Source: an uncultured Clostridia bacterium
GTDB lineage: Bacteria > Bacillota > Clostridia > Lachnospirales > Lachnospiraceae
Reading direction: 5' to 3'
Length of the DNA stretch: 64,000 nt
NCBI GenBank assembly: GCA_946184675.1
Contig: CAMHFW010000001.1
Span: 14,822-78,821 of the forward strand
Made by a program: the position numbers and the translations under genes
The notes under the pieces: generated by a model
What the model saw: only the letters and a program-made list of their open reading frames with translations
The model's database searches: none
What the model was told of the DNA's origin: nothing
Part shown: one piece after another, positions 54,322 to 63,334 of the stretch
Layout of the letters: the number at the start of each line of letters is the position of its first letter
How positions within the stretch are numbered: the first letter of the stretch is position 1

Positions 54322-55872
54322 TTAGAACACCCCCTTTAATGCAGTCTGTGCAACGAACTCTACAATCTGGCTGTTAAAGATACCCATAGCTACGATGCCG
54401 ATACCAAACACAACGATCGGAACCAGCATAACGGCCGGCACTTCCAGGAAATGCTTCTTGGCAGCTGCGCCGTCTCTCCTGGCCTCTTTGTCGAATCGGT
54501 CAGCCAGACGAGCCTCCGGAGCGATAAAGATCTTCTCCAGGACTCTCAGGAAATAGATGGCATTGAGCAGGGAGCTCAGTACCAGAACAGCCATGTAGAT
54601 ATACAGGTGCTTGTCCATGGCACCCATCATCAGATACCATTTACTGAAGAAGCCGCCTGTAGGAGGAATACCTACCATGGCAAGGGCTCCCATCGTAATG
54701 GTAAAGCAGGTGAAAGGCATTTTCTTGTGGAGCTGTCCGAACTGGTTGATATTGACAATACCGAACCGGTACTGGATGGCGCCGATGGCGAAGAAAAGTC
54801 CGCCCTTCATAAACAGATGGTTCAGGATATGCAGGTAGGATCCGGTCACGCCGTAGAGGTTGCCAATTCCGATACCCAGCGCAATATAACCGAGCTGGGC
54901 CACACTGGAGTAGGCCAGCATACGGCGGAAATCTGTCTGATTCAGAGCCATAACGGATCCGAAGATCATACCCAGGGCTCCCAGAATGCCAATCAGTCTC
55001 GTGGCATCAACGATTACCAGGTTCTGGACTCCGAAAATGAAGAAGAAGAACCGGATCATGGCCAGGGCCGGCACCTTACTCATGGCACCTGAAATCAGCG
55101 GTGATGCGCCCGGATGGGAATATGCGTACGCGTCAGGCTGCCATGCATGGAAGGGGAACTGGGCCATCTTGATGCCGAATGCGCCGATCAGAGATGCGCA
55201 TACCAGATACATCAGCGGGTTGTCCATCTGTGACTGAAGGAGCTCGCCCATATCCGCCATGTTCAGGGAACCTGTCATAGCATACATGAGACCGATGCCA
55301 AGCAGATAGAAGGAGGCACCGATCGTTCCGATCAGCAGATAACGGAAGGCTGCCGGAATGGAACGCTTGCCGCCGAGGGCAATCAGTCCGTAGCAGGACA
55401 GGGAGGAAATCTCCAGATAAACGTAAAGGTTAAATACATCTCCCGTGAGGGTCATGCCGACCAGACCAACCGTCAGCAGGGCGATCAGTGTGTAGTAGCC
55501 GCCCGACTGCAGCCATTCGCGGTCTTTTAAGAAACTCAGGGAATAAATGGAAGCGCACATGGCAATGAATGTGATAAAGCATGCCAGAAGCGCATTAATC
55601 GGATCTACATAGAACTCGATACCGATCGGGGCATCCCAGTTGCCCATAGCATAGCGGATCAGGTGGCCTTCAGCCTGCAGAACCTGGGCCGTCAGACCTA
55701 CTGCATCCAGAAATGCAAATACAAGTGACAGAATAACGACTGCCTTGCCAAGATTTTTATTGATCCTGCTCAGCAGAAGGCTCAGCAGGGCCGCGGAAAG
55801 CGGAACAACGACAGCAAGGACAGGCAGATGGTTCATTATCATAATAAGTAATACCTCTCGATCATGTCTCAT
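54322..55872 (-). CDS. NuoL/M/N-MrpD-family antiporter-like subunit (copy 1, ~506-516 aa)
   Basis: YVYLEISSLSCY, FHAWQPDAYAYSHPGASPLISG and AQLGYI motifs. The start is at 55872 (AAGGA RBS) or 55842. Confidence 0.88.
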   Translation of the reverse strand: MRHDREVLLIMIMNHLPVLAVVVPLSAALLSLLLSRINKNLGKAVVILSLVFAFLDAVGLTAQVLQAEGHLIRYAMGNWDAPIGIEFYVDPINALLACFITFIAMCASIYSLSFLKDREWLQSGGYYTLIALLTVGLVGMTLTGDVFNLYVYLEISSLSCYGLIALGGKRSIPAAFRYLLIGTIGASFYLLGIGLMYAMTGSLNMADMGELLQSQMDNPLMYLVCASLIGAFGIKMAQFPFHAWQPDAYAYSHPGASPLISGAMSKVPALAMIRFFFFIFGVQNLVIVDATRLIGILGALGMIFGSVMALNQTDFRRMLAYSSVAQLGYIALGIGIGNLYGVTGSYLHILNHLFMKGGLFFAIGAIQYRFGIVNINQFGQLHKKMPFTCFTITMGALAMVGIPPTGGFFSKWYLMMGAMDKHLYIYMAVLVLSSLLNAIYFLRVLEKIFIAPEARLADRFDKEARRDGAAAKKHFLEVPAVMLVPIVVFGIGIVAMGIFNSQIVEFVAQTALKGVF

Positions 55873-56344
55873 CCGGGTCCTTGCCCGTTACATCAGCAGT
55901 TTCTTCTTTTTCAGCTTCTTTTTCGGCTTCCGCCTCATCTGCCTCATCCGCAGACTCTTCTTTCTTTTTGCGGGCTTTGCCGCTGAGCAGATCGTCCTCT
56001 TCCACAGAGCCGTACTCCTCAGTCATACGCATCAGGAGCGCCAGAGCTACGCCTGTAGTACCAAGGCTTACAACGATCGCTGTCAGCATGAGCGCATGCG
56101 GGATAGGATTGAGATATCCGGAAGCTGCTTCCGTTACTCCGTCCAAAATAGGGATCACACCGCCCCTCTTCTGCGCAAAGCAGAGGAAGAAGAGGATAAC
56201 CGCTACCTGCATGACATTCATGCACATCATTTTTTTCATATAATTCTTACAGGTGATCATCCCGTAGACCGCAAGGAAAAACAGGATAAAGACCAGGCAG
56301 TAGATGCCTCTTGCTGCAAGAAAAGTGTTCACTGTTTCCAGCAT
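55862..56344 (-). CDS. MrpC/MnhC (NuoK-like) subunit with a ~50-aa charged C-terminal extension
   Basis: Three TM helices (GMITCKNYMKKMMCMNVMQVAVILFFL..., ALMLTAIVVSLGTTGVALALL), then EEDDLLSGKARKKKEESADEADEAEAEKEAEKEE. Confidence 0.8.
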   Translation of the reverse strand: MLETVNTFLAARGIYCLVFILFFLAVYGMITCKNYMKKMMCMNVMQVAVILFFLCFAQKRGGVIPILDGVTEAASGYLNPIPHALMLTAIVVSLGTTGVALALLMRMTEEYGSVEEDDLLSGKARKKKEESADEADEAEAEKEAEKEETADVTGKDPDET

Positions 56345-56362
56345 ATCAGGCCTCTCCTTTCT

Positions 56363-57178
56363 TTAATCCTTTTCCTCAAAGTCTTCACGTTTCAGCAGGG
56401 CTTCCATGATCCCTACGATGGTCATCATAACGCAGAGGGTAACACCCGCTTCGATCATAAAGATGCCCGCCTCGTGCAGGTGATGGTAACTGATCGGAAA
56501 CGGCATTGCGCCGTACTCCAGGAACATACCCCCGTTAAAGAGAGACAGCCATCCGGTAAATACATAGAAAAATGCGCCGATGCCGGCCAGCAGAACGGCA
56601 ACCGCTCCGGGAATCTTGAAGGAAGCTTTCTCGCCCTTCATCAGTCTTCCCAGCACCATACCGAGCGCCAGAACCGCGCCTGCCTGGAAGCCGCCGCCGG
56701 GGCTGGCTTCTCCCGCCGCCAGAACATACATGGCGTACATCATGGAAAACGGAACGATCAGTCTTGCGGACACATCAATGATGATGCCGCCGAAGGGATG
56801 ATTCATAATACCTTTCAGCTTACTGGTCTCCACAGGCCGGAGCAGTTCCGCTCCCATTACCTTCTCCGTAACATCGTATTTTCTCTTTTTCTGCTGATCC
56901 TTCTTCTGGTTCACTGCCAGCAGAAGGGTAACAACCAGGCCCGATACGAACATAACGGAAGTCTCGTACATGGTATCGTAGCCTCTGTAGTCAGCCAGCG
57001 TGCCGGATACGATATTGGGTGATGCCGTATCCTCTTCACTGTGTTCAATATAATAATCCGAAATGTGATTATTCGGTACAGACTGCGGGTCTCCAATCTC
57101 CGGCAGATATGCCGTGCCTGCGCAAAAGGCTCCGCACAGAATGATCAGGACCACCAGTGTCAGAATCTTATACTTCAA
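56363..57178 (-). CDS. MrpB/MnhB-type subunit (fused MbhE+MbhF-like)
   Basis: NIVSGTLADYRGYDTMYE (MnhB signature) and GEASPGGGFQAGAVLA (second MnhB-like half). Confidence 0.8.
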   Translation of the reverse strand: MKYKILTLVVLIILCGAFCAGTAYLPEIGDPQSVPNNHISDYYIEHSEEDTASPNIVSGTLADYRGYDTMYETSVMFVSGLVVTLLLAVNQKKDQQKKRKYDVTEKVMGAELLRPVETSKLKGIMNHPFGGIIIDVSARLIVPFSMMYAMYVLAAGEASPGGGFQAGAVLALGMVLGRLMKGEKASFKIPGAVAVLLAGIGAFFYVFTGWLSLFNGGMFLEYGAMPFPISYHHLHEAGIFMIEAGVTLCVMMTIVGIMEALLKREDFEEKD

Positions 57179-57194
57179 TGTCTGCTGCCCCCTC

Positions 57195-57437
57195 TCACTT
57201 ACAGAACCTGTTGACCTTCTTGAGGGCTACCGCGAAATAAACGGTAGACATGGTTCCGATAACAGCCTCTGTGAAGGCTACGTCGGGAGAACCGAAGAAA
57301 AGATAGGTCATTACTGCGCTGAAACTGAAGGCGCAGAAAAGGATCGTGACTGCAAAGAGGTCTTTATTAAAGATAATGCCGACCAGGATGCAAATCAGGA
57401 AAATAAGCAAAGCCGCCTCAAAAATCATTATCTGCAT
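57195..57437 (-). CDS. DUF4040 / MbhD-like subunit (equivalent to the MrpA C-terminal segment)
   Basis: 80 aa from the ATG at 57437. FGSPDVAFTEAVIGTMST matches the aPDvAlTEa motif of DUF4040. Confidence 0.7.
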   Translation of the reverse strand: MQIMIFEAALLIFLICILVGIIFNKDLFAVTILFCAFSFSAVMTYLFFGSPDVAFTEAVIGTMSTVYFAVALKKVNRFCK

Positions 57438-57462
57438 GATATCTCTCCACTCCCTACCGTAC

Positions 57463-57792
57463 TTATTTCTCAGTGTTCTCTTCCGGCTTGTCTCCTGCAA
57501 GCTTCATGGCAAATCCGGTCCGCCTTGCGGTACGTGTGATGATATGCGTACCGATCGGGTTGCAGACACATACCAGAAGGAAAAGCAGGACCAGCTTGAC
57601 CGACAGTATGTCAGCGCCTAAGAGCAGGATAAATCCGATACAGGTCATGCACAGGCCCATGGTGTCTCCCACGCCGGCCGCATGACAGCGCTGGAAGAAA
57701 TCAGGCAGCCTGTAAAAGCCGACAACTGTAGTCAGACAGCAAAGTGTTCCCAGAAACAGGAAGATAACCGCAAGAATCTCATTTATCTGCAT
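57463..57792 (-). CDS. MrpG/MnhG subunit
   Basis: 109 aa. FYRLPDFFQRCHAAGVGDTMG is the MnhG signature. Confidence 0.85.
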   Translation of the reverse strand: MQINEILAVIFLFLGTLCCLTTVVGFYRLPDFFQRCHAAGVGDTMGLCMTCIGFILLLGADILSVKLVLLFLLVCVCNPIGTHIITRTARRTGFAMKLAGDKPEENTEK

Positions 57793-58054
57793 CTTTCTTC
57801 CCTCCCAAGTACTTAGCTACTACGATATTGGAAACAAATCCGAGAATCGCATATGCAATAGCAATGTCGATATACATCTCGGGACGGCCGTCCTGGAAGC
57901 CGAAAACCACAATCAGGATCACAACATCGGAGTTGATCACCGCCAGAGCATTCATACGGTCATAGATGGATTTGCTCCGGACCATATGCAGGACCATCAG
58001 AAACAGAAATACAATCAGCGCTGCAAGAGCAATGATATAAAAAGTATTCATCAT
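57779..58054 (-). CDS. MrpF/MnhF subunit
   Basis: 91 aa with three TM helices. VRSKSIYDRMNALAVINSDVVILIV is typical of MnhF. Confidence 0.8.
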   Translation of the reverse strand: MMNTFYIIALAALIVFLFLMVLHMVRSKSIYDRMNALAVINSDVVILIVVFGFQDGRPEMYIDIAIAYAILGFVSNIVVAKYLGGKKDADK

Positions 58055-58620
58055 GACTTCTCCTGCACCTCCAGTACCTTAAAGTCTTCACTCTCATGAT
58101 AAAGCCCTGCCACCTTGCGGAGCATACCGCCGTCGATAATGCCCTGGGCTGCGCCCGGTGTCAGCGCGTGGATCTCAAAGACGCCCTCTTTGGTAAAGCT
58201 GAGCGTAATGGTTCCAGGCGTAAGGGTAATCGAATTGGCAAGAAGTGCCGCCGCGATCGGATTCTTCCAGTCAACCTGGAATCGAATCAGCTCCGGATGG
58301 ATCGGAAGGCCTGACTTCCAGACAGTCTTGGCCACATCGATGTTTGCCATCACAAGTTCCTTAAAAAGCCATACCATATAGGCAAGAAACTTCAAAATGG
58401 ACACATCAAGCAGGAAATGCTTCTTCCCGTCCCTGTCCTCAATCAGGAACAGAGGCATGCAGACCAGCCCTACCACAAAACATGACAGCAGACCAATGAT
58501 CACAAACTTTATGTGCAGAGTCGCGCTGATCAGCAAGTAAAATACAAACAAAATCACACAAAAACGCACATAATGAAAGACCGGGCTGCCAACAACGTCA
58601 GGATCTTTAAAAACCCTCAT
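58051..58620 (-). CDS. MrpE/MnhE subunit
   Basis: Two N-terminal TM helices, then ANIDVAKTVWKSGLPIHPELIRF...LANSITLTPGTITL (MnhE signature). The ATG at 58620 lies 9 nt after AAGGAG. Confidence 0.8.
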   Translation of the reverse strand: MRVFKDPDVVGSPVFHYVRFCVILFVFYLLISATLHIKFVIIGLLSCFVVGLVCMPLFLIEDRDGKKHFLLDVSILKFLAYMVWLFKELVMANIDVAKTVWKSGLPIHPELIRFQVDWKNPIAAALLANSITLTPGTITLSFTKEGVFEIHALTPGAAQGIIDGGMLRKVAGLYHESEDFKVLEVQEKS

Positions 58621-58863
58621 AGTGTCTCTCTCCTTTTGCCGCCTTCCCGCTTCCGATGCAGGAAAACCGCAAACCATGCTAAAGTCAACAAGTTACATAA
58701 TATATAAAATTTCTATAAAAAATATACCAGGATATTTTACAGCCATTTTATTATATCATAGATTGTTTAGATTTTGACACTTATATATGTATAAAATATC
58801 CGACATCCTTCATGTTCCGGTGACTCTTTCTTCCTTCTTTTCTTTTTTACGAATATTGAAGCA

Positions 58864-58901
58864 TAAAAAGAAGACCGCCTGTGCCAGGCACAAACGGTCT
58901 T
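58864..58901 (-). terminator. Rho-independent terminator after the Cys-Ala-tail protein gene
   Basis: On the minus strand: AAGACCGTTTGTGCC-T-GGCACAGGCGGTCTT (two G-U pairs), followed by CTTTTTATGC. Confidence 0.65.
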
Positions 58902-58923
58902 ATATGGCTTCTGCAGCCACTTT

Positions 58924-60198
58924 TTATTTTGCTGCCTCCTTCAGATACCGCAGCTTCAGGTCTGTCTGATAAAAGTCTTTCACAGAACATCCTGCTCTGC
59001 CGCCGCCGGCGCAGGCACATGCACAGGCGCATGCACAGGAGCTGGCACAGGCACATGAACTGCGATGGGAAGAGGCCCTGGATCCGGCTCCGCGGGATAC
59101 GCCTGATCTGGATCCGCCGCCGCGGGAGCCCGTATATCCTGAAGACCTGGGAACAGGAATCACATGTACATGCACGTAGGTGTTCGGAGAATGCGCATAA
59201 CGATACAATCCATCCGTTTTCTTTTCCCGTATCTCCTTCTCCTCAACAGGAATGTCTTTTTCTTCTATGAGCTCTTTGCTCTTGATAAAGCTCCGTCCGC
59301 AGTACTCGCAGTTATCCTTGCCTTCCGGCCGGGCCGCGCCGCAGCCCTGGCATACCGGATAGTATTCGATCTTGGTCCGGACGATTTTTTTCTGCCTGCT
59401 GCTGCCGAAATTCGCACCTCTCGAGTATTGCAGAATCCTGCTTACAATCAGGACAATCACCAGGATCGGCACGATCATTGAGATCAGAACGCCAATCAGC
59501 ACATAAACGGAATCGCTGTCACCGCCATTTCCCTCATATCCGCCGCTGTTCTGGAAAGACTTTGTCTCGTCGAAATAGAAGGCGTCATTGGGATAGGTCA
59601 CTTCCACCTGATACCGCTCTCCCTTCTGCAGAGAGCCGGTCCAGGTAAGATACCCTTCACTGTCCATCTCGCAGGCCGGACTCCAGCTAAGCGCCTTATT
59701 CCCATTCCAGCGGACCTTGATATGATCTATCACGATATCGTCAAACCAGCCGGGAGTAAACTGAAAGACCGTTTCCCCGTCTGTATAATGATTCATGTCA
59801 TACAGGTAATCCTGCACGACCTCAAAATCAAAGCTGACGACCTCATTTTCATAATAATTGCGGTCAAAGTCCACCCGGATATTGCTTCCGTAGGAAGAGG
59901 TATAAGAAATGTCGCGGATGCTGTCAGAAAGAGCCCGGTAGGAGACATAGTGCCCGTTGGGAATGCCGATCGTCACCCAGGAAAGGGGGCCTTCCGAATC
60001 CGAATCGAGAACCTTCCAGTCAATATGATACTGCAGGGTTACCGTCGCATCGTCATTCACTTCTGCCGTAATCTCATAGTTTTCAATCTCGTCCAGGTCT
60101 GCTGCATACGCGGGATGCGGAACGGCAAGCAGGAAAAGCAGGGAAATCACTATGCAGGCAAATACGGCAAGTCCTTTTCTATTTATTCTTGTTCTCAT
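58924..60198 (-). CDS. Single-pass membrane protein: signal peptide, extracytoplasmic beta-rich domain (DUF2207-like), TM helix, cytoplasmic zinc ribbon, Gly/Ser/Arg linker and a (Cys-Ala)n tail
   Basis: Signal peptide MRTRINRKGLAVFACIVISLLFLLAVPHPAYA. TM helix VYVLIGVLISMIVPILVIVLIV. Zinc ribbon CQGC...CEYC. Tail CACASSCACACACACAGGGRAGCS. The ATG at 60198 forms an ATGA overlap with the rSAM stop and follows GGAGGAG. Confidence 0.75.
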   Translation of the reverse strand: MRTRINRKGLAVFACIVISLLFLLAVPHPAYAADLDEIENYEITAEVNDDATVTLQYHIDWKVLDSDSEGPLSWVTIGIPNGHYVSYRALSDSIRDISYTSSYGSNIRVDFDRNYYENEVVSFDFEVVQDYLYDMNHYTDGETVFQFTPGWFDDIVIDHIKVRWNGNKALSWSPACEMDSEGYLTWTGSLQKGERYQVEVTYPNDAFYFDETKSFQNSGGYEGNGGDSDSVYVLIGVLISMIVPILVIVLIVSRILQYSRGANFGSSRQKKIVRTKIEYYPVCQGCGAARPEGKDNCEYCGRSFIKSKELIEEKDIPVEEKEIREKKTDGLYRYAHSPNTYVHVHVIPVPRSSGYTGSRGGGSRSGVSRGAGSRASSHRSSCACASSCACACACACAGGGRAGCSVKDFYQTDLKLRYLKEAAK

Positions 60199-61601
60199 TT
60201 CCCAACTCCTCCTTCCTCTTCCGCTGTTTTCACAGGTCTGATAATACGCAGGGGACACTCACAGAGCATAGCAGCGGAAAAATCACGCCGCTTTTTGCAG
60301 GTCTGACTGTTCCAGATCTTCTCCCAGTCGTCTTCCAGGAAATTGCCCAGGGCCTGGCCTGACAGCCAGCTCTGACAGGGAATGACATTTCCTCCCGGCG
60401 TAATCGCCATGTTGCTGAGGCAGGCCCCGCAATTTGGAGTCGCGATCCCCAGTTCTCTGCAAAAATCATCATCTGCCCAGCCGGGGGAAGTAAAACTAAT
60501 CTCCATGCCGTTTTCAAAGCAATAAGCCACTGCTTCCCGCAGAATCTCACGAATCTCTGCATTGGTCAGCTGCAGGCTTTCGGACCCTGCAAGCGCGGCA
60601 TTTCCCGTGGTGATCAGTCCGGAACAGGTTACAAAGCAGACACCGAGCTCATGCAGAAACCTCAAAGTGCTCAGATAATCCCGGTTCAAAGTGCAAAGAG
60701 GCGTATTGATGCTGACGCTCAGGCCTGCTGCAAGGGCATTCCGGATCCCTTTTACCGTATCCTGGTAGCGCGTGGCGCCAACCAGGCGGTTATGTACGGC
60801 TTCATCCGCCGAATAAAATGTAATCTGGACACTGTCCAGTGATGCGTCAAAAAGCTTGTCGCAATATTCCTCTGTCAGACGGATCCCGTTCGTGTTAAGC
60901 CTTGTCACAAACCATCTGGCGGCATCGATCAGTTCAAGCAGGTCCTCCCTCATGGTAGGCTCTCCTCCGGTAAAGGTCACCTGCGGGATCCCGATCTTCC
61001 GGCACTTTTCCAGAATCTGTTTCCAGGCCTCTGTATCCAGTTCCTGCTCCTCAGCGCCGTGCTGCCCGGCTGCATAGCAATGCACACACTGCTGATTGCA
61101 GTGCCAGCAGCCCTCTCTGGTCATGGCGCTCACCAGCAGATCCATCCGGTGCGGTGCCTTCATATAGGGGGCATACTCCCCGATGCTCATGTAAGCGATT
61201 TCTTCTTCCACCGGCTGCCCATAGGCGACTCTGGCAAAAGTGTCCATAATCTTATAGATATCTGCCGCAAGCCTTTTCCGGGAAACAAAGGGGTATACCT
61301 TTTTGACAGAGCTGCACGTATCCTGAACAATCTTTTCCGTGTCCTCTTTCGTCAGCTCTCTGCCGCTGTAGGGATTGATCTTTTCAATCAGTTCTGCCAG
61401 AAGGATCGACCAGGAAACATTGACAGGAAGGATATCCTGTCCGTTTATGATGGCCAGACTTGCAGAAATCTCCTGGTCCGTCACCTGCGGCGGGACCAGA
61501 TGAATCCGGACCACTCCCGGCCCCTCCGGGTTCAGCGTTGTATGATGTACCTCACCAAAATGCTCTCTTGCATATTGCAGTTCGCGCTTTGAAGCTTTCA
61601 T
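60195..61601 (-). CDS. Radical SAM enzyme with a ~165-aa N-terminal extension and a SPASM/twitch-like C-terminal Cys-rich domain
   Basis: CNQQCVHCY (CX3CX2C), GGEPTMR, NTNG. The C-terminal region is CGACLSNMAITPGGNVIPC...TCKKRRDFSAAMLCEC. The start is the ATG at 61601 or at 61613. Confidence 0.85.
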   Translation of the reverse strand: MKASKRELQYAREHFGEVHHTTLNPEGPGVVRIHLVPPQVTDQEISASLAIINGQDILPVNVSWSILLAELIEKINPYSGRELTKEDTEKIVQDTCSSVKKVYPFVSRKRLAADIYKIMDTFARVAYGQPVEEEIAYMSIGEYAPYMKAPHRMDLLVSAMTREGCWHCNQQCVHCYAAGQHGAEEQELDTEAWKQILEKCRKIGIPQVTFTGGEPTMREDLLELIDAARWFVTRLNTNGIRLTEEYCDKLFDASLDSVQITFYSADEAVHNRLVGATRYQDTVKGIRNALAAGLSVSINTPLCTLNRDYLSTLRFLHELGVCFVTCSGLITTGNAALAGSESLQLTNAEIREILREAVAYCFENGMEISFTSPGWADDDFCRELGIATPNCGACLSNMAITPGGNVIPCQSWLSGQALGNFLEDDWEKIWNSQTCKKRRDFSAAMLCECPLRIIRPVKTAEEEGGVGK

Positions 61602-61702
61602 AAGCCATCCCATCCTTTCTGCACAGAATTCCGGTATATTACGGAATTCACCTGCATTTCGCCCATATACTCATATCTTGTTTCTATTATAGCAGAAACT
61701 TA

Positions 61703-61745
61703 CACAAAAAATAGAGCGGAACAGTCAGACTGCTCCGCCCTTTTA
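61703..61745 (-). terminator. Rho-independent terminator after the BKACE gene; it insulates the rSAM operon
   Basis: On the minus strand: GCGGAGCAGTC-T-GACTGTTCCGC (61738..61716), followed by TCTATTTTTTGTGT. An extended -10, TGCTATAAT, follows for the rSAM gene. Confidence 0.7.
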
Positions 61746-62707: not shown

Positions 62708-63334
62708 TCAGTTCTTCGGTGTGAAGAAGGGTTTGCCCTGTGTGATCTCAATTCCGCACCATCCAAGCATGAGAGCCATGATCTGCCACATTGCTGCGAT
62801 ACCATCAATCAGGAGGCAGAAAGCTGCGGGATAGTTGAGTACTGCCGGTGCGAGACCTGCGCCGGTAAGACCGTAGCCAAGCACGCCAAGGCCGCCGAAC
62901 AGGAACATGATAAAGTCACACTTGCATGCATATTTTAAGCCGGGAAGCATGATCAGAAGGAATACGCCGGCTACGATAAATGCCACGCCGCAGATCTGAT
63001 AGCAAAAAGGAATGGATGCTGGTACAAGTGACATGGTTACGTGTGCAGTTCCGGCAATTCCGCCGAAAACAGTTGCAAAAATCATGAAGGTATTGCCGCC
63101 GAAGGCATTGCCGTTCTTAAGAAGGATGATACCGCCGACGGTATAAGTTACAAATACGCCCAGCTGCAGCACGCCGATGGCAAGAACTGCGCCGTCTGTG
63201 AAAAAGCCCATTGTGTTTGCCCAGAAGCAGAAACACAGAGTTGCGAATACCAGATTCAGCACCGGAACCGGGCTGCCGAAAGTGTTCTCAGGATTCACTG
63301 TTACTTTTACTTCCTGAATATTGTTATTTTCCAT
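62708..63334 (-). CDS. Six-TM membrane protein, GPR1/FUN34/YaaH (acetate/succinate channel)-like
   Basis: An N-terminal NPENTFGSPVP motif (compare NPAPLGL) and LLKNGNAFGGNTFMIFATVFGG (compare YKKGNTFGLTAFTSYG in SatP). Confidence 0.55.
   Translation of the reverse strand: MENNNIQEVKVTVNPENTFGSPVPVLNLVFATLCFCFWANTMGFFTDGAVLAIGVLQLGVFVTYTVGGIILLKNGNAFGGNTFMIFATVFGGIAGTAHVTMSLVPASIPFCYQICGVAFIVAGVFLLIMLPGLKYACKCDFIMFLFGGLGVLGYGLTGAGLAPAVLNYPAAFCLLIDGIAAMWQIMALMLGWCGIEITQGKPFFTPKN

Follow-up and report, generated by a model that had tools for sequence, protein, structure and literature searches.

A SPASM/twitch-like radical SAM enzyme and a membrane protein with a Cys-Ala tail, its probable substrate, form a dedicated gene pair in gut Clostridia and other bacteria

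Most of what is known about radical S-adenosylmethionine (SAM)/SPASM maturases concerns the tailoring of small peptides that are secreted. Their Cys-rich targets include SCIFF, which carries six cysteines in forty-five residues. Full-length proteins are modified as well, sulfatases by anSME and QhpC by QhpD. DUF2207 proteins, a second group to which the locus described below has to be compared, are of unknown function (PMC10457818). Here, we analyzed a window of 64,000 nucleotides (the whole stretch of DNA under analysis) from an uncultured Clostridia bacterium of the Lachnospiraceae (GenBank assembly GCA_946184675.1, contig CAMHFW010000001.1, positions 14,822 to 78,821). The region under study, 58871..61741 on the minus strand, contains gene 1, which encodes a radical SAM enzyme with a SPASM/twitch-like domain, and gene 2, which encodes a DUF2207-like membrane protein ending in a Cys-Ala tail, flanked by terminator-like hairpins (Table 1). 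It is close to certain that the two genes form a dedicated pair, and the gene 1 enzyme probably modifies the tail of the gene 2 protein post-translationally. This tail, a cytoplasmic part of a full-length membrane protein, is the only candidate substrate conserved here.

The pairing was surveyed from both sides. In the enzyme-first survey, which covered one genome per GTDB species, two strict enzyme peptide patterns found relatives in 494 genomes, and the best 80 loci were examined. A tail-bearing gene lies immediately downstream on the same strand in every one of the 72 evaluable loci among these 80; the other eight were treated as not evaluable. In seven of them, the contig stops so close behind the enzyme gene that a tail would not be covered; L009 stops only 25 nucleotides after the enzyme gene. 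In the tail-first survey, metagenome contigs were searched with a DNA pattern for (CA)3GGGR[A/V]GC, which matched at least 120 stretches. An enzyme relative is present in 52 of the 80 loci taken from the matches listed; in 51 of these it is upstream and on the same strand, in one (L121) it is downstream. Upstream of the motif, 24 of the 28 enzyme-less loci offer less than 1.2 kb, too little for a judgement, so that about 56 are evaluable, and the enzyme is found in 52 of these about 56 among the matches listed.

Distant lineages were reached with a Parcubacteria enzyme (40% identical) as the query, and the genomic contexts of its relatives were inspected. Enzymes about 40% identical adjoin tail proteins of 322-345 amino acids on a metagenome contig (L081/L082), in a metagenome-assembled genome (MAG) of Shapirobacteria, and in a Bacilli MAG, where the gene order is inverted, with the membrane protein gene upstream. 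These partners have the same ectodomain, one transmembrane (TM) helix, a Gly-rich linker, and a tail of the form SCACACAGGGRAGCSVKGF, SCACACACAGGGRVGCSERGL or SCACACACACAGGGRAGCSRKEF, and they lack the zinc ribbon of gene 2. Enzymes about 40-55% identical to gene 1 in Patescibacteria, Bacilli, and Hungatella hathewayi are also paired; the pair is present on contig L207, whose enzyme represents a 90% cluster with the named members Hungatella hathewayi/effluvii, and in a gut clade of 3,634 member sequences. Co-conservation of the two genes, on which the preliminary description of this DNA had made its reading depend, thus holds in both surveys, in lineages at about 40% identity, in L207, and in the gut clade. 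That the genes are mere neighbours with no functional connection is effectively refuted by these comparative data, since the adjacency is found at 72/72 and 52/~56 evaluable loci, spans Bacillota and Patescibacteria in otherwise unrelated contexts, and includes inverted order in some lineages.

Clustering of the open reading frames (ORFs) of the 80 genome loci revealed no third conserved gene, the next cluster occurring in only 11 of 80. Neither a conserved small ORF that could encode a short precursor peptide, which the preliminary description had also missed next to the enzyme, nor a conserved protease, transporter or exporter, or immunity gene adjoins the pair in these loci; the only conserved neighbour is the membrane protein of 320-560 amino acids. 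Five loci (L054, L059, L061, L071, and L077) contain a second tail-bearing paralogue of full architecture, convergently oriented, with a single enzyme gene seen, and two metagenome contigs (L110 and L153) carry tandem tail-gene copies and end before any enzyme gene could appear. The second copies often differ from the first in a longer run, (CA)6-7, and in lacking the preceding CAHSSC. One enzyme with two tail-bearing paralogues resembles a cluster with multiple precursors of peptides that are made ribosomally and modified post-translationally (RiPPs). Together with the GGG before the last part of the motif, which loosely recalls double-glycine processing sites, such paralogues would fit a membrane protein that serves as a giant leader, from which the modified tail is cleaved and released as a small RiPP. 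This is very improbable: these loci lack a conserved protease or exporter, the tail is conserved across phyla together with the ectodomain and TM helix, and the enzyme, at 65-90% identity across hundreds of species, does not behave like natural-product clusters, which diversify fast.

The translation of the tail in the window is exactly as first described, with 8 Cys in 23 residues. All 119 listed full-length gene 2 homologues (119/119) end in ...SCACACACACAGGGRAGC[S/T]xKDFYxTxLKL..., and in 208 distinct tail windows conservation is 97-100% for four Cys-Ala units. The GGGR[A/V]GC columns of these windows were preset by the search pattern and carry no weight as conservation; behind them follow S or T, any residue, K (98%), D (86%), F (87%), and Y (93%), and K407, D408, F409, and Y410 are invariant in an alignment of 26 gene 2 sequences. 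Near-invariance in both samples argues that the tail is not a product of chance. Cys and Ala codons are mixed in the window copy and over the 72 related loci (TGT 236 and TGC 201; GCC 258, GCA 84, GCG 69, and GCT 26), and Tandem Repeats Finder (TRF) returns only an imperfect period-6 array with 69% matches. A slippage-prone DNA microsatellite was rejected on these grounds. As synonymous codons vary while the amino acids are fixed and the array is imperfect, the repeat appears to be kept at the protein level, which the preliminary description had proposed from the mixed codons. A glycyl-radical-type motif in GGGRAGC was rejected as well: the sequence does not fit RVxG[FWY], and to our knowledge SPASM enzymes are not glycyl-radical activases.

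Gene 1 was first taken for a radical SAM enzyme with a CX3CX2C motif and a SPASM/twitch-like auxiliary domain, and both assignments hold. Pfam Radical_SAM (PF04055) matches with E=9.7e-24 (84.8 bits, gathering score 29.5) and Pfam SPASM (PF13186) with E=7.7e-8 (33.0 bits, gathering score 21.5), and the CX3CX2C motif is invariant in 17 close homologues. In the auxiliary domain, all of 15 relatives at 29-52% identity have C395, C413, and C453, and 12 of them also have C398. Of the canonical seven-Cys SPASM pattern for two auxiliary clusters (CX9-15GX4C ... CX2CX5CX3C ... C), C398-x9-G408-x4-C413 is present and CX2CX5CX3C is absent. With this element missing and about four Cys conserved, the domain is probably twitch-like with a single auxiliary cluster. 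The AlphaFold2 (AF2) model of gene 1 (mean predicted local distance difference test score [pLDDT] 77.7) consists of an N-terminal domain, followed by the radical SAM barrel and then by the C-terminal auxiliary domain.

The closest solved relatives of gene 1 are peptide or protein modifiers (SkfB, SuiB, CteB, anSME, and PqqE). By sequence, the nearest PDB matches are SkfB (E=9.8e-12) and PqqE, with the lipid-modifying GDGT-MAS also among the matches (E=4.4e-10). By fold, the best Foldseek matches are SkfB (E=1.6e-12), SuiB, CteB, and anSME, with a Foldseek probability of 1.00 against SkfB, SuiB, anSME, and MoaA; SuiB and CteB align over about 450-480 columns, including their N-terminal RiPP recognition element (RRE) region, and the epimerase EpeE stands at rank 48. 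No NCBIfam equivalog is reached at threshold, the best scores being about 100 bits against cut-offs of 300-650: NirJ2 gives 100 bits (cut-off 500), MoaA 97 (325), PqqE 95 (381), AhbD 86 (500), MftC 74 (265), SkfB TIGR04403 56.4 (300), and StsB NF045574 56.6 (625). Distant family members give the same sub-threshold pattern, and no SCIFF model is among the 25 NCBIfam families listed for the enzyme. The preliminary description had looked to hidden Markov model (HMM) searches to place the enzyme, also with regard to families of known non-peptide substrate: SPASM was recovered with Pfam, no NCBIfam subfamily at threshold and no RRE was, and at about 100 bits against cut-offs of 300-650 the enzyme belongs to none of the non-peptide families.

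Thousands of database relatives exist for gene 1 and for gene 2 alike. A deep search of 1.84 billion representatives yielded 143 enzyme relatives with E<1e-30, and full-length relatives that include the N-terminal domain reach down to about 30% identity. Four full-length relatives at 29-36% identity (P0256, P0271, P0273, and P0284) have lost at least one Cys of CX3CX2C, as in CNNRCLHY or GGCGLMDIPAY; they could be pseudo-radical-SAM paralogues without catalytic activity, or errors of sequencing. P0459 (607 amino acids) was rejected as a fused enzyme, its C-terminal part being low-complexity read-through at a contig end and most likely a frameshift artefact. A reading as anti-phage defence or prokaryotic viperin was also rejected, as the PADLOC pVip models match only the generic radical SAM core (residues 171-311); gene 2 has no match in PADLOC.

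In front of the radical SAM core, gene 1 has a conserved extension of about 140 residues, with strands predicted at 37-40, 52-56, and 60-64 and helices at 66-82, 89-104, and 112-130 (pLDDT 80-96), in which the motifs EVHHTTLNPEGPGVVRIHLVPP and SWSILL are invariant in the homologue alignment. The predicted order of three strands and then three helices matches that of RREs. No PqqD/RRE signature was detected in this domain by Pfam at E<=10 or by member-wise Pfam on 17 diverse N-terminal domains, and a profile search of PDB sequences with the domain as the query (E<=10) returned only noise such as flagellin and coiled coils. The preliminary description had considered an extension of about 165 residues as a possible recognition domain; conservation and the RRE-like predicted order speak for this, and an identity as RRE is unsupported by sequence.

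The tail is predicted to be disordered and to lie on the cytoplasmic side of the TM helix. A basic stretch (RILQYSR...RQKKIVRTK) follows this helix, and by the positive-inside rule the C-terminal part of gene 2 would therefore be cytoplasmic. Several lines of evidence make the tail the probable substrate: the enzyme consistently adjoins a tail-bearing gene; the ectodomain, TM helix, and tail motif are constant across phyla; the enzyme lies in the peptide- or protein-modifying branch of SPASM/twitch enzymes and has a conserved extra N-terminal domain; and the tail, being disordered and cytoplasmic, would be accessible to an oxygen-sensitive Fe-S enzyme in the compartment where such an enzyme works. 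The preliminary description had proposed the Cys-Ala tail as the substrate; strict co-conservation and the peptide-modifier folds now stand behind this proposal, of which the modification and its chemistry are still only inferred.

In the main alternative, the tail would be a metal or Fe-S ligand, or a docking, tethering or regulatory site for the enzyme at the membrane, and the true substrate would be something else, for example a small molecule, a lipid or the precursor of a cofactor. Runs of alternating Cys are well known as metal binders, tetrapyrrole and cofactor enzymes (NirJ2, AhbD, AhbC, and MoaA) are among the curated families with the highest scores, and GDGT-MAS is among the PDB matches. 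An apparent fusion of the enzyme to a VanZ-like membrane domain in one lineage also points to membrane-proximal action: on L210 (1628-3505), a 625-residue product joins this domain to the enzyme N-terminus, with a tail-bearing protein of 312 residues encoded next, and the enzyme of that lineage would be membrane-anchored if the fusion is real. However, the non-Cys residues of the tail (Ala, GGGR, the following Gly, and K-D-F-Y) are as invariant as the Cys, which is more than simple metal binding needs, the cofactor families all score 3- to 6-fold under their cut-offs, peptide or protein modifiers provide the nearest folds, and no gene of another substrate pathway is conserved nearby. We therefore regard a ligand or docking role as unlikely.

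Some observations weigh against the tail as the substrate of a peptide-type maturase. At the sequence level, the N-terminal domain of gene 1 does not resemble PqqD/RRE families, the SPASM domain is non-canonical with only about four conserved Cys, and among curated families, all far below threshold, cofactor enzymes (NirJ2, MoaA, PqqE, and AhbD) come as close in HMM score as peptide maturases do. The tail lacks the Asp, Glu, and Thr acceptors used by known ranthipeptide enzymes, and its Cys-x-Cys repeats, also typical of metal binding, could make it a ligand rather than a substrate. Four tail-first loci remain without an enzyme (L143, L141, L110, and L153), and two of them, L143 and L141, are evaluable tail genes with no adjacent enzyme. 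The case for tail modification as a whole is inferred from comparative and predicted data. The tail gene of L143 (386-2068) is a variant of 560 amino acids with a Pro/Glu-rich N-terminal extension of about 200 residues, preceded by an RNA-methyltransferase-like gene; that of L141 (5103-6092) is 5'-truncated and lies beside a phage-type integrase.

If the gene 1 enzyme modifies the tail, thioether cross-links would be the likeliest product because of the high Cys density, a guess that we put forward tentatively. In such a scheme, genes 1 and 2 would form a self-contained enzyme-substrate module. The N-terminal domain of the enzyme would dock the tail, with the post-motif segment as the probable contact; the radical SAM cluster would cleave SAM to give the 5'-deoxyadenosyl radical, which would take a hydrogen from a tail residue; and a tail Cys held at the auxiliary Fe-S cluster would capture the carbon radical to form one or more intramolecular thioethers of the sactionine or ranthionine type. 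A precedent is given by the thioether-forming SPASM enzymes PapB and Tte1186, in which the substrate Cys or selenocysteine binds the auxiliary cluster directly (PMC10177961). The (Cys-Ala)n-GGGRAGC tail could conceivably become a multiply cross-linked 'thioether ladder' or a protein-derived metal or redox cofactor at the cytoplasmic face of the membrane, an outcome that we consider doubtful.

The tail may also be modified by a different chemistry: oxidation of Cys to formylglycine or a dehydro residue as by anSME, L-to-D epimerisation of Ala or Cys as by YydG/EpeE, C-C cross-linking, methylation or formation of a protein-derived redox cofactor. SPASM/twitch enzymes catalyse many reaction types, the top structural matches of gene 1 include anSME, an enzyme that acts on full-length proteins, and EpeE also appears in that list. 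However, the tail does not contain the anSME motif (C/S)-x-(P/A)-x-R, and high Cys density is most typical of thioether-forming SPASM systems, which is a weak prior. These chemistries taken together appear rather unlikely to us.

Table 1. Features of the two-gene region, with positions in the window and the basis of each assignment
Feature	Position	Strand	Basis
Upstream boundary: intrinsic terminator of upstream BKACE gene	61713..61741	-	13-bp stem, 7 GC pairs, then T-run ATTTTTTGTG
Extended -10-like element TGCTATAAT, candidate promoter	61686..61694	-	sequence
Gene 1, radical SAM / SPASM-twitch enzyme, 472 aa in ORF list	60195..61613	-	Pfam, alignments, AF2, Foldseek
Probable true start of gene 1, ATG 61601 (MKASKRE...), preceded by AAAGGATGGGATGG	61599..61613 region	-	homologue alignment
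Conserved N-terminal domain of gene 1 (residues ~30-131), candidate substrate-recognition domain	61221..61526	-	AF2, alignment
CX3CX2C cluster motif (C172, C176, C179; CNQQCVHC, residues 172-179)	61077..61100	-	sequence, alignment
SPASM/twitch auxiliary-cluster domain, residues 395-453	60255..60431	-	PF13186, alignments
ATGA overlap, gene 2 start codon / gene 1 stop codon	60195..60198	-	sequence
Gene 2, 424-aa DUF2207-like membrane protein, N-terminal part extracytoplasmic, C-terminal part cytoplasmic (predicted)	58924..60198	-	sequence, Pfam, AF2
Signal peptide, residues 1-32 (...AYA|AD)	60103..60198	-	sequence; AF2 helix 2-25
Extracytoplasmic beta-sandwich, residues ~33-225, distantly DUF2207_N-like	59524..60102	-	AF2, Foldseek, PF09972
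TM helix, residues 231-253	59440..59508	-	AF2, sequence
Zinc-ribbon Cys C283/C286/C297/C300 (CxxC...CxxC, residues 283-300)	59299..59352	-	alignment, AF2
Disordered Gly/Ser/Arg/His-rich linker, residues 352-381	59056..59145	-	AF2 pLDDT ~30-45; variable length and sequence
Cys-Ala tail CACASSCACACACACAGGGRAGC, residues 382-404, proposed modification site	58987..59055	-	translation, alignments
Example tail peptide SSCACACACACAGGGRAGCSTKDFYNTDLKL			
Post-motif segment S-V-K-D-F-Y-x-T-x-L-K-L, possible recognition element	58951..58986	-	conservation
Downstream boundary: intrinsic terminator after gene 2	58871..58901	-	14-bp stem, 7 GC pairs, then T-run CTTTTTATGC

The architecture of gene 2 agrees with the single-pass protein with zinc ribbon, Gly/Ser/Arg linker, and Cys-rich tail that was first described. 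Its beta-sandwich is confidently modelled over residues 36-203 (pLDDT >90), and about 60 disordered residues, including the tail, followed by a short terminal helix, close the AF2 model. The DUF2207 profile (PF09972) matches gene 2 at 16.7 bits against a gathering score of 24.4 (E=0.009) and matches 10 of 26 gene 2 homologues at E<=0.01 (best 2.9e-5). No Pfam or NCBIfam family is above threshold for gene 2 or its distant homologues, sub-threshold DUF2207_N being the only match, and no sulfatase domain was found in gene 2 by NCBIfam and Pfam scans. From these weak but repeated matches, the ectodomain would be a distant relative of the DUF2207 N-terminal domain. Foldseek returns a generic beta-sandwich likeness, to the N-domain of M1 aminopeptidases/LTA4H and to OST1/ribophorin I, which offers no functional clue. 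The zinc-ribbon Cys sit in a small cytoplasmic beta domain of the AF2 model (residues 270-348); all four are invariant in the 26 aligned gene 2 sequences and absent from most distant family members, and judged by this distribution the ribbon is a lineage-specific insert outside the conserved system. The constant core of the family consists of the ectodomain, the TM helix, the Gly-rich linker, and (CA)n-GGGR[A/V]GC[S/T]xK.

Terminators on both sides insulate the two genes as first proposed, with the hairpins at the boundaries given in Table 1. The separate extended -10 promoter proposed along with them fared less clearly: the element TGCTATAAT is present, no -35 hexamer for it was found in a consensus scan, and the promoter is therefore plausible but unproven. 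The ORF-list start of gene 1 is the ATG at 61613 (MGWLMKASK...), and in an alignment with 16 homologues nearly all begin MKASK...; translation therefore probably starts at the second ATG (61601), giving 468 rather than 472 amino acids. The ATGA overlap noted at the outset can be read directly in the sequence. Of 73 related loci, 21 share the -4 ATG overlap, and about 63 have an in-frame start codon at most 12 nucleotides from the gene 1 stop; by this spacing, translational coupling of gene 2 to gene 1 is tight.

The flanking genes are unrelated to the pair. The BKACE gene lies upstream, and an operon for an Mrp/Mnh-type multisubunit cation/proton antiporter (MnhB/MbhE-, MnhG-, MrpF-, and MnhE-like; 55745..58677, minus strand) lies directly downstream. 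Between the BKACE gene and a putative cyclase gene, the window also encodes a multi-pass membrane protein of 208 amino acids (62708..63334, minus strand), which has no Pfam match at E<=0.001. Neighbours differ in other genomes. On L207 (2063-3801), genes for two thiol-redox proteins, a DsbD_TM-thioredoxin fusion and a thioredoxin, lie immediately upstream of the pair, an arrangement that may be a coincidence or may be related to keeping the Cys-rich tail reduced. In the Bacilli MAG (L085, 2593-2921), the upstream membrane protein gene overlaps the enzyme gene, and the enzyme gene is followed by two small ORFs (52 and 54 amino acids, not Cys-rich) and then by a ferritin gene. In Patescibacteria (L081, 7389-8639; L083, 7448-8636), two lipoprotein-like genes come after the pair, which in L083 encode a TPM-domain protein (E=4.5e-7) and a weakly LemA/YkyA-like protein.

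Literature searches on the tail motif strings, on radical SAM with DUF2207, and on SPASM with TPM, LemA or a Cys-rich tail found no description of the motif or the pairing, and the matches to CACACACAGGG were DNA primers and irrelevant. As far as found, the pairing is absent from curated families and the searchable literature, and there is no precedent for an integral membrane protein with a tail targeted by a radical SAM maturase. An unusual target for this enzyme class, as the preliminary description had it, is thus too broad for full-length proteins as such, given anSME and QhpD, and apt for a membrane-protein tail. The module is housekeeping-like in its spread over gut and rumen Bacillota and Patescibacteria, with enzyme relatives in the 494 GTDB species genomes by strict patterns alone, and it occurs in Hungatella hathewayi, a cultured species. 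If the tail is modified, the substrate scope of the enzyme class would be wider and a new protein modification would exist in dominant gut anaerobes. This would define a previously unrecognised class of modified membrane proteins, extend RiPP-type chemistry to integral membrane proteins, and provide a first functional handle on the large DUF2207/TPM/LemA group with Gly-rich tails. Comprising two genes and a soluble tail fragment, the compact system is open to direct co-expression and mass spectrometry.

Among known systems, the maturases SkfB, AlbA, CteB, PapB, and Tte1186 share with gene 1 a radical SAM core, a C-terminal SPASM/twitch domain, and a preceding N-terminal domain, and SkfB is the best match by both sequence and fold. 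As in sactipeptide and ranthipeptide systems, a Cys-rich target is encoded beside the enzyme gene, and one enzyme may serve several targets. The target here is the C-terminal tail of an integral membrane protein of 320-560 amino acids, whereas theirs is a leader-core peptide of 30-60 amino acids; no protease or exporter is conserved, and the N-terminal domain lacks the PqqD/RRE sequence signature. Furthermore, gene 1 misses the SkfB equivalog threshold (about 56 bits against 300), and it is highly conserved and widespread, whereas sactipeptide and ranthipeptide maturases are sporadic. With anSME and QhpD, gene 1 would share the modification of Cys in a full-length protein by a SPASM radical SAM enzyme. 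However, gene 2 is neither a sulfatase nor an amine-dehydrogenase subunit, its tail has no (C/S)x(P/A)xR, and anSME lacks the N-terminal extension that gene 1 has.

Like DUF2207 (YciQ-like) proteins, gene 2 has an extracytoplasmic N-terminal beta domain, a TM helix, and a cytoplasmic Gly-rich low-complexity tail, in addition to its weak PF09972 matches. DUF2207, TPM, and LemA genes are the usual neighbourhood of one another in other bacteria, and in Patescibacteria the pair is followed by just such TPM-domain and weakly LemA-like genes. It differs from DUF2207 in staying below the Pfam gathering score, in its single TM helix in the AF2 model as opposed to the multi-TM C-terminal region, and in the (CA)n-GGGRAGC tail and the dedicated radical SAM enzyme, neither of which was found reported for DUF2207 proteins. 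Unlike genes 1 and 2, which reach no curated NCBIfam cut-off, SCIFF is a free peptide of about 45 amino acids with another Cys pattern; like them, it belongs to a widely conserved Clostridia module that combines a Cys-rich target with a SPASM maturase and shows housekeeping-like conservation.

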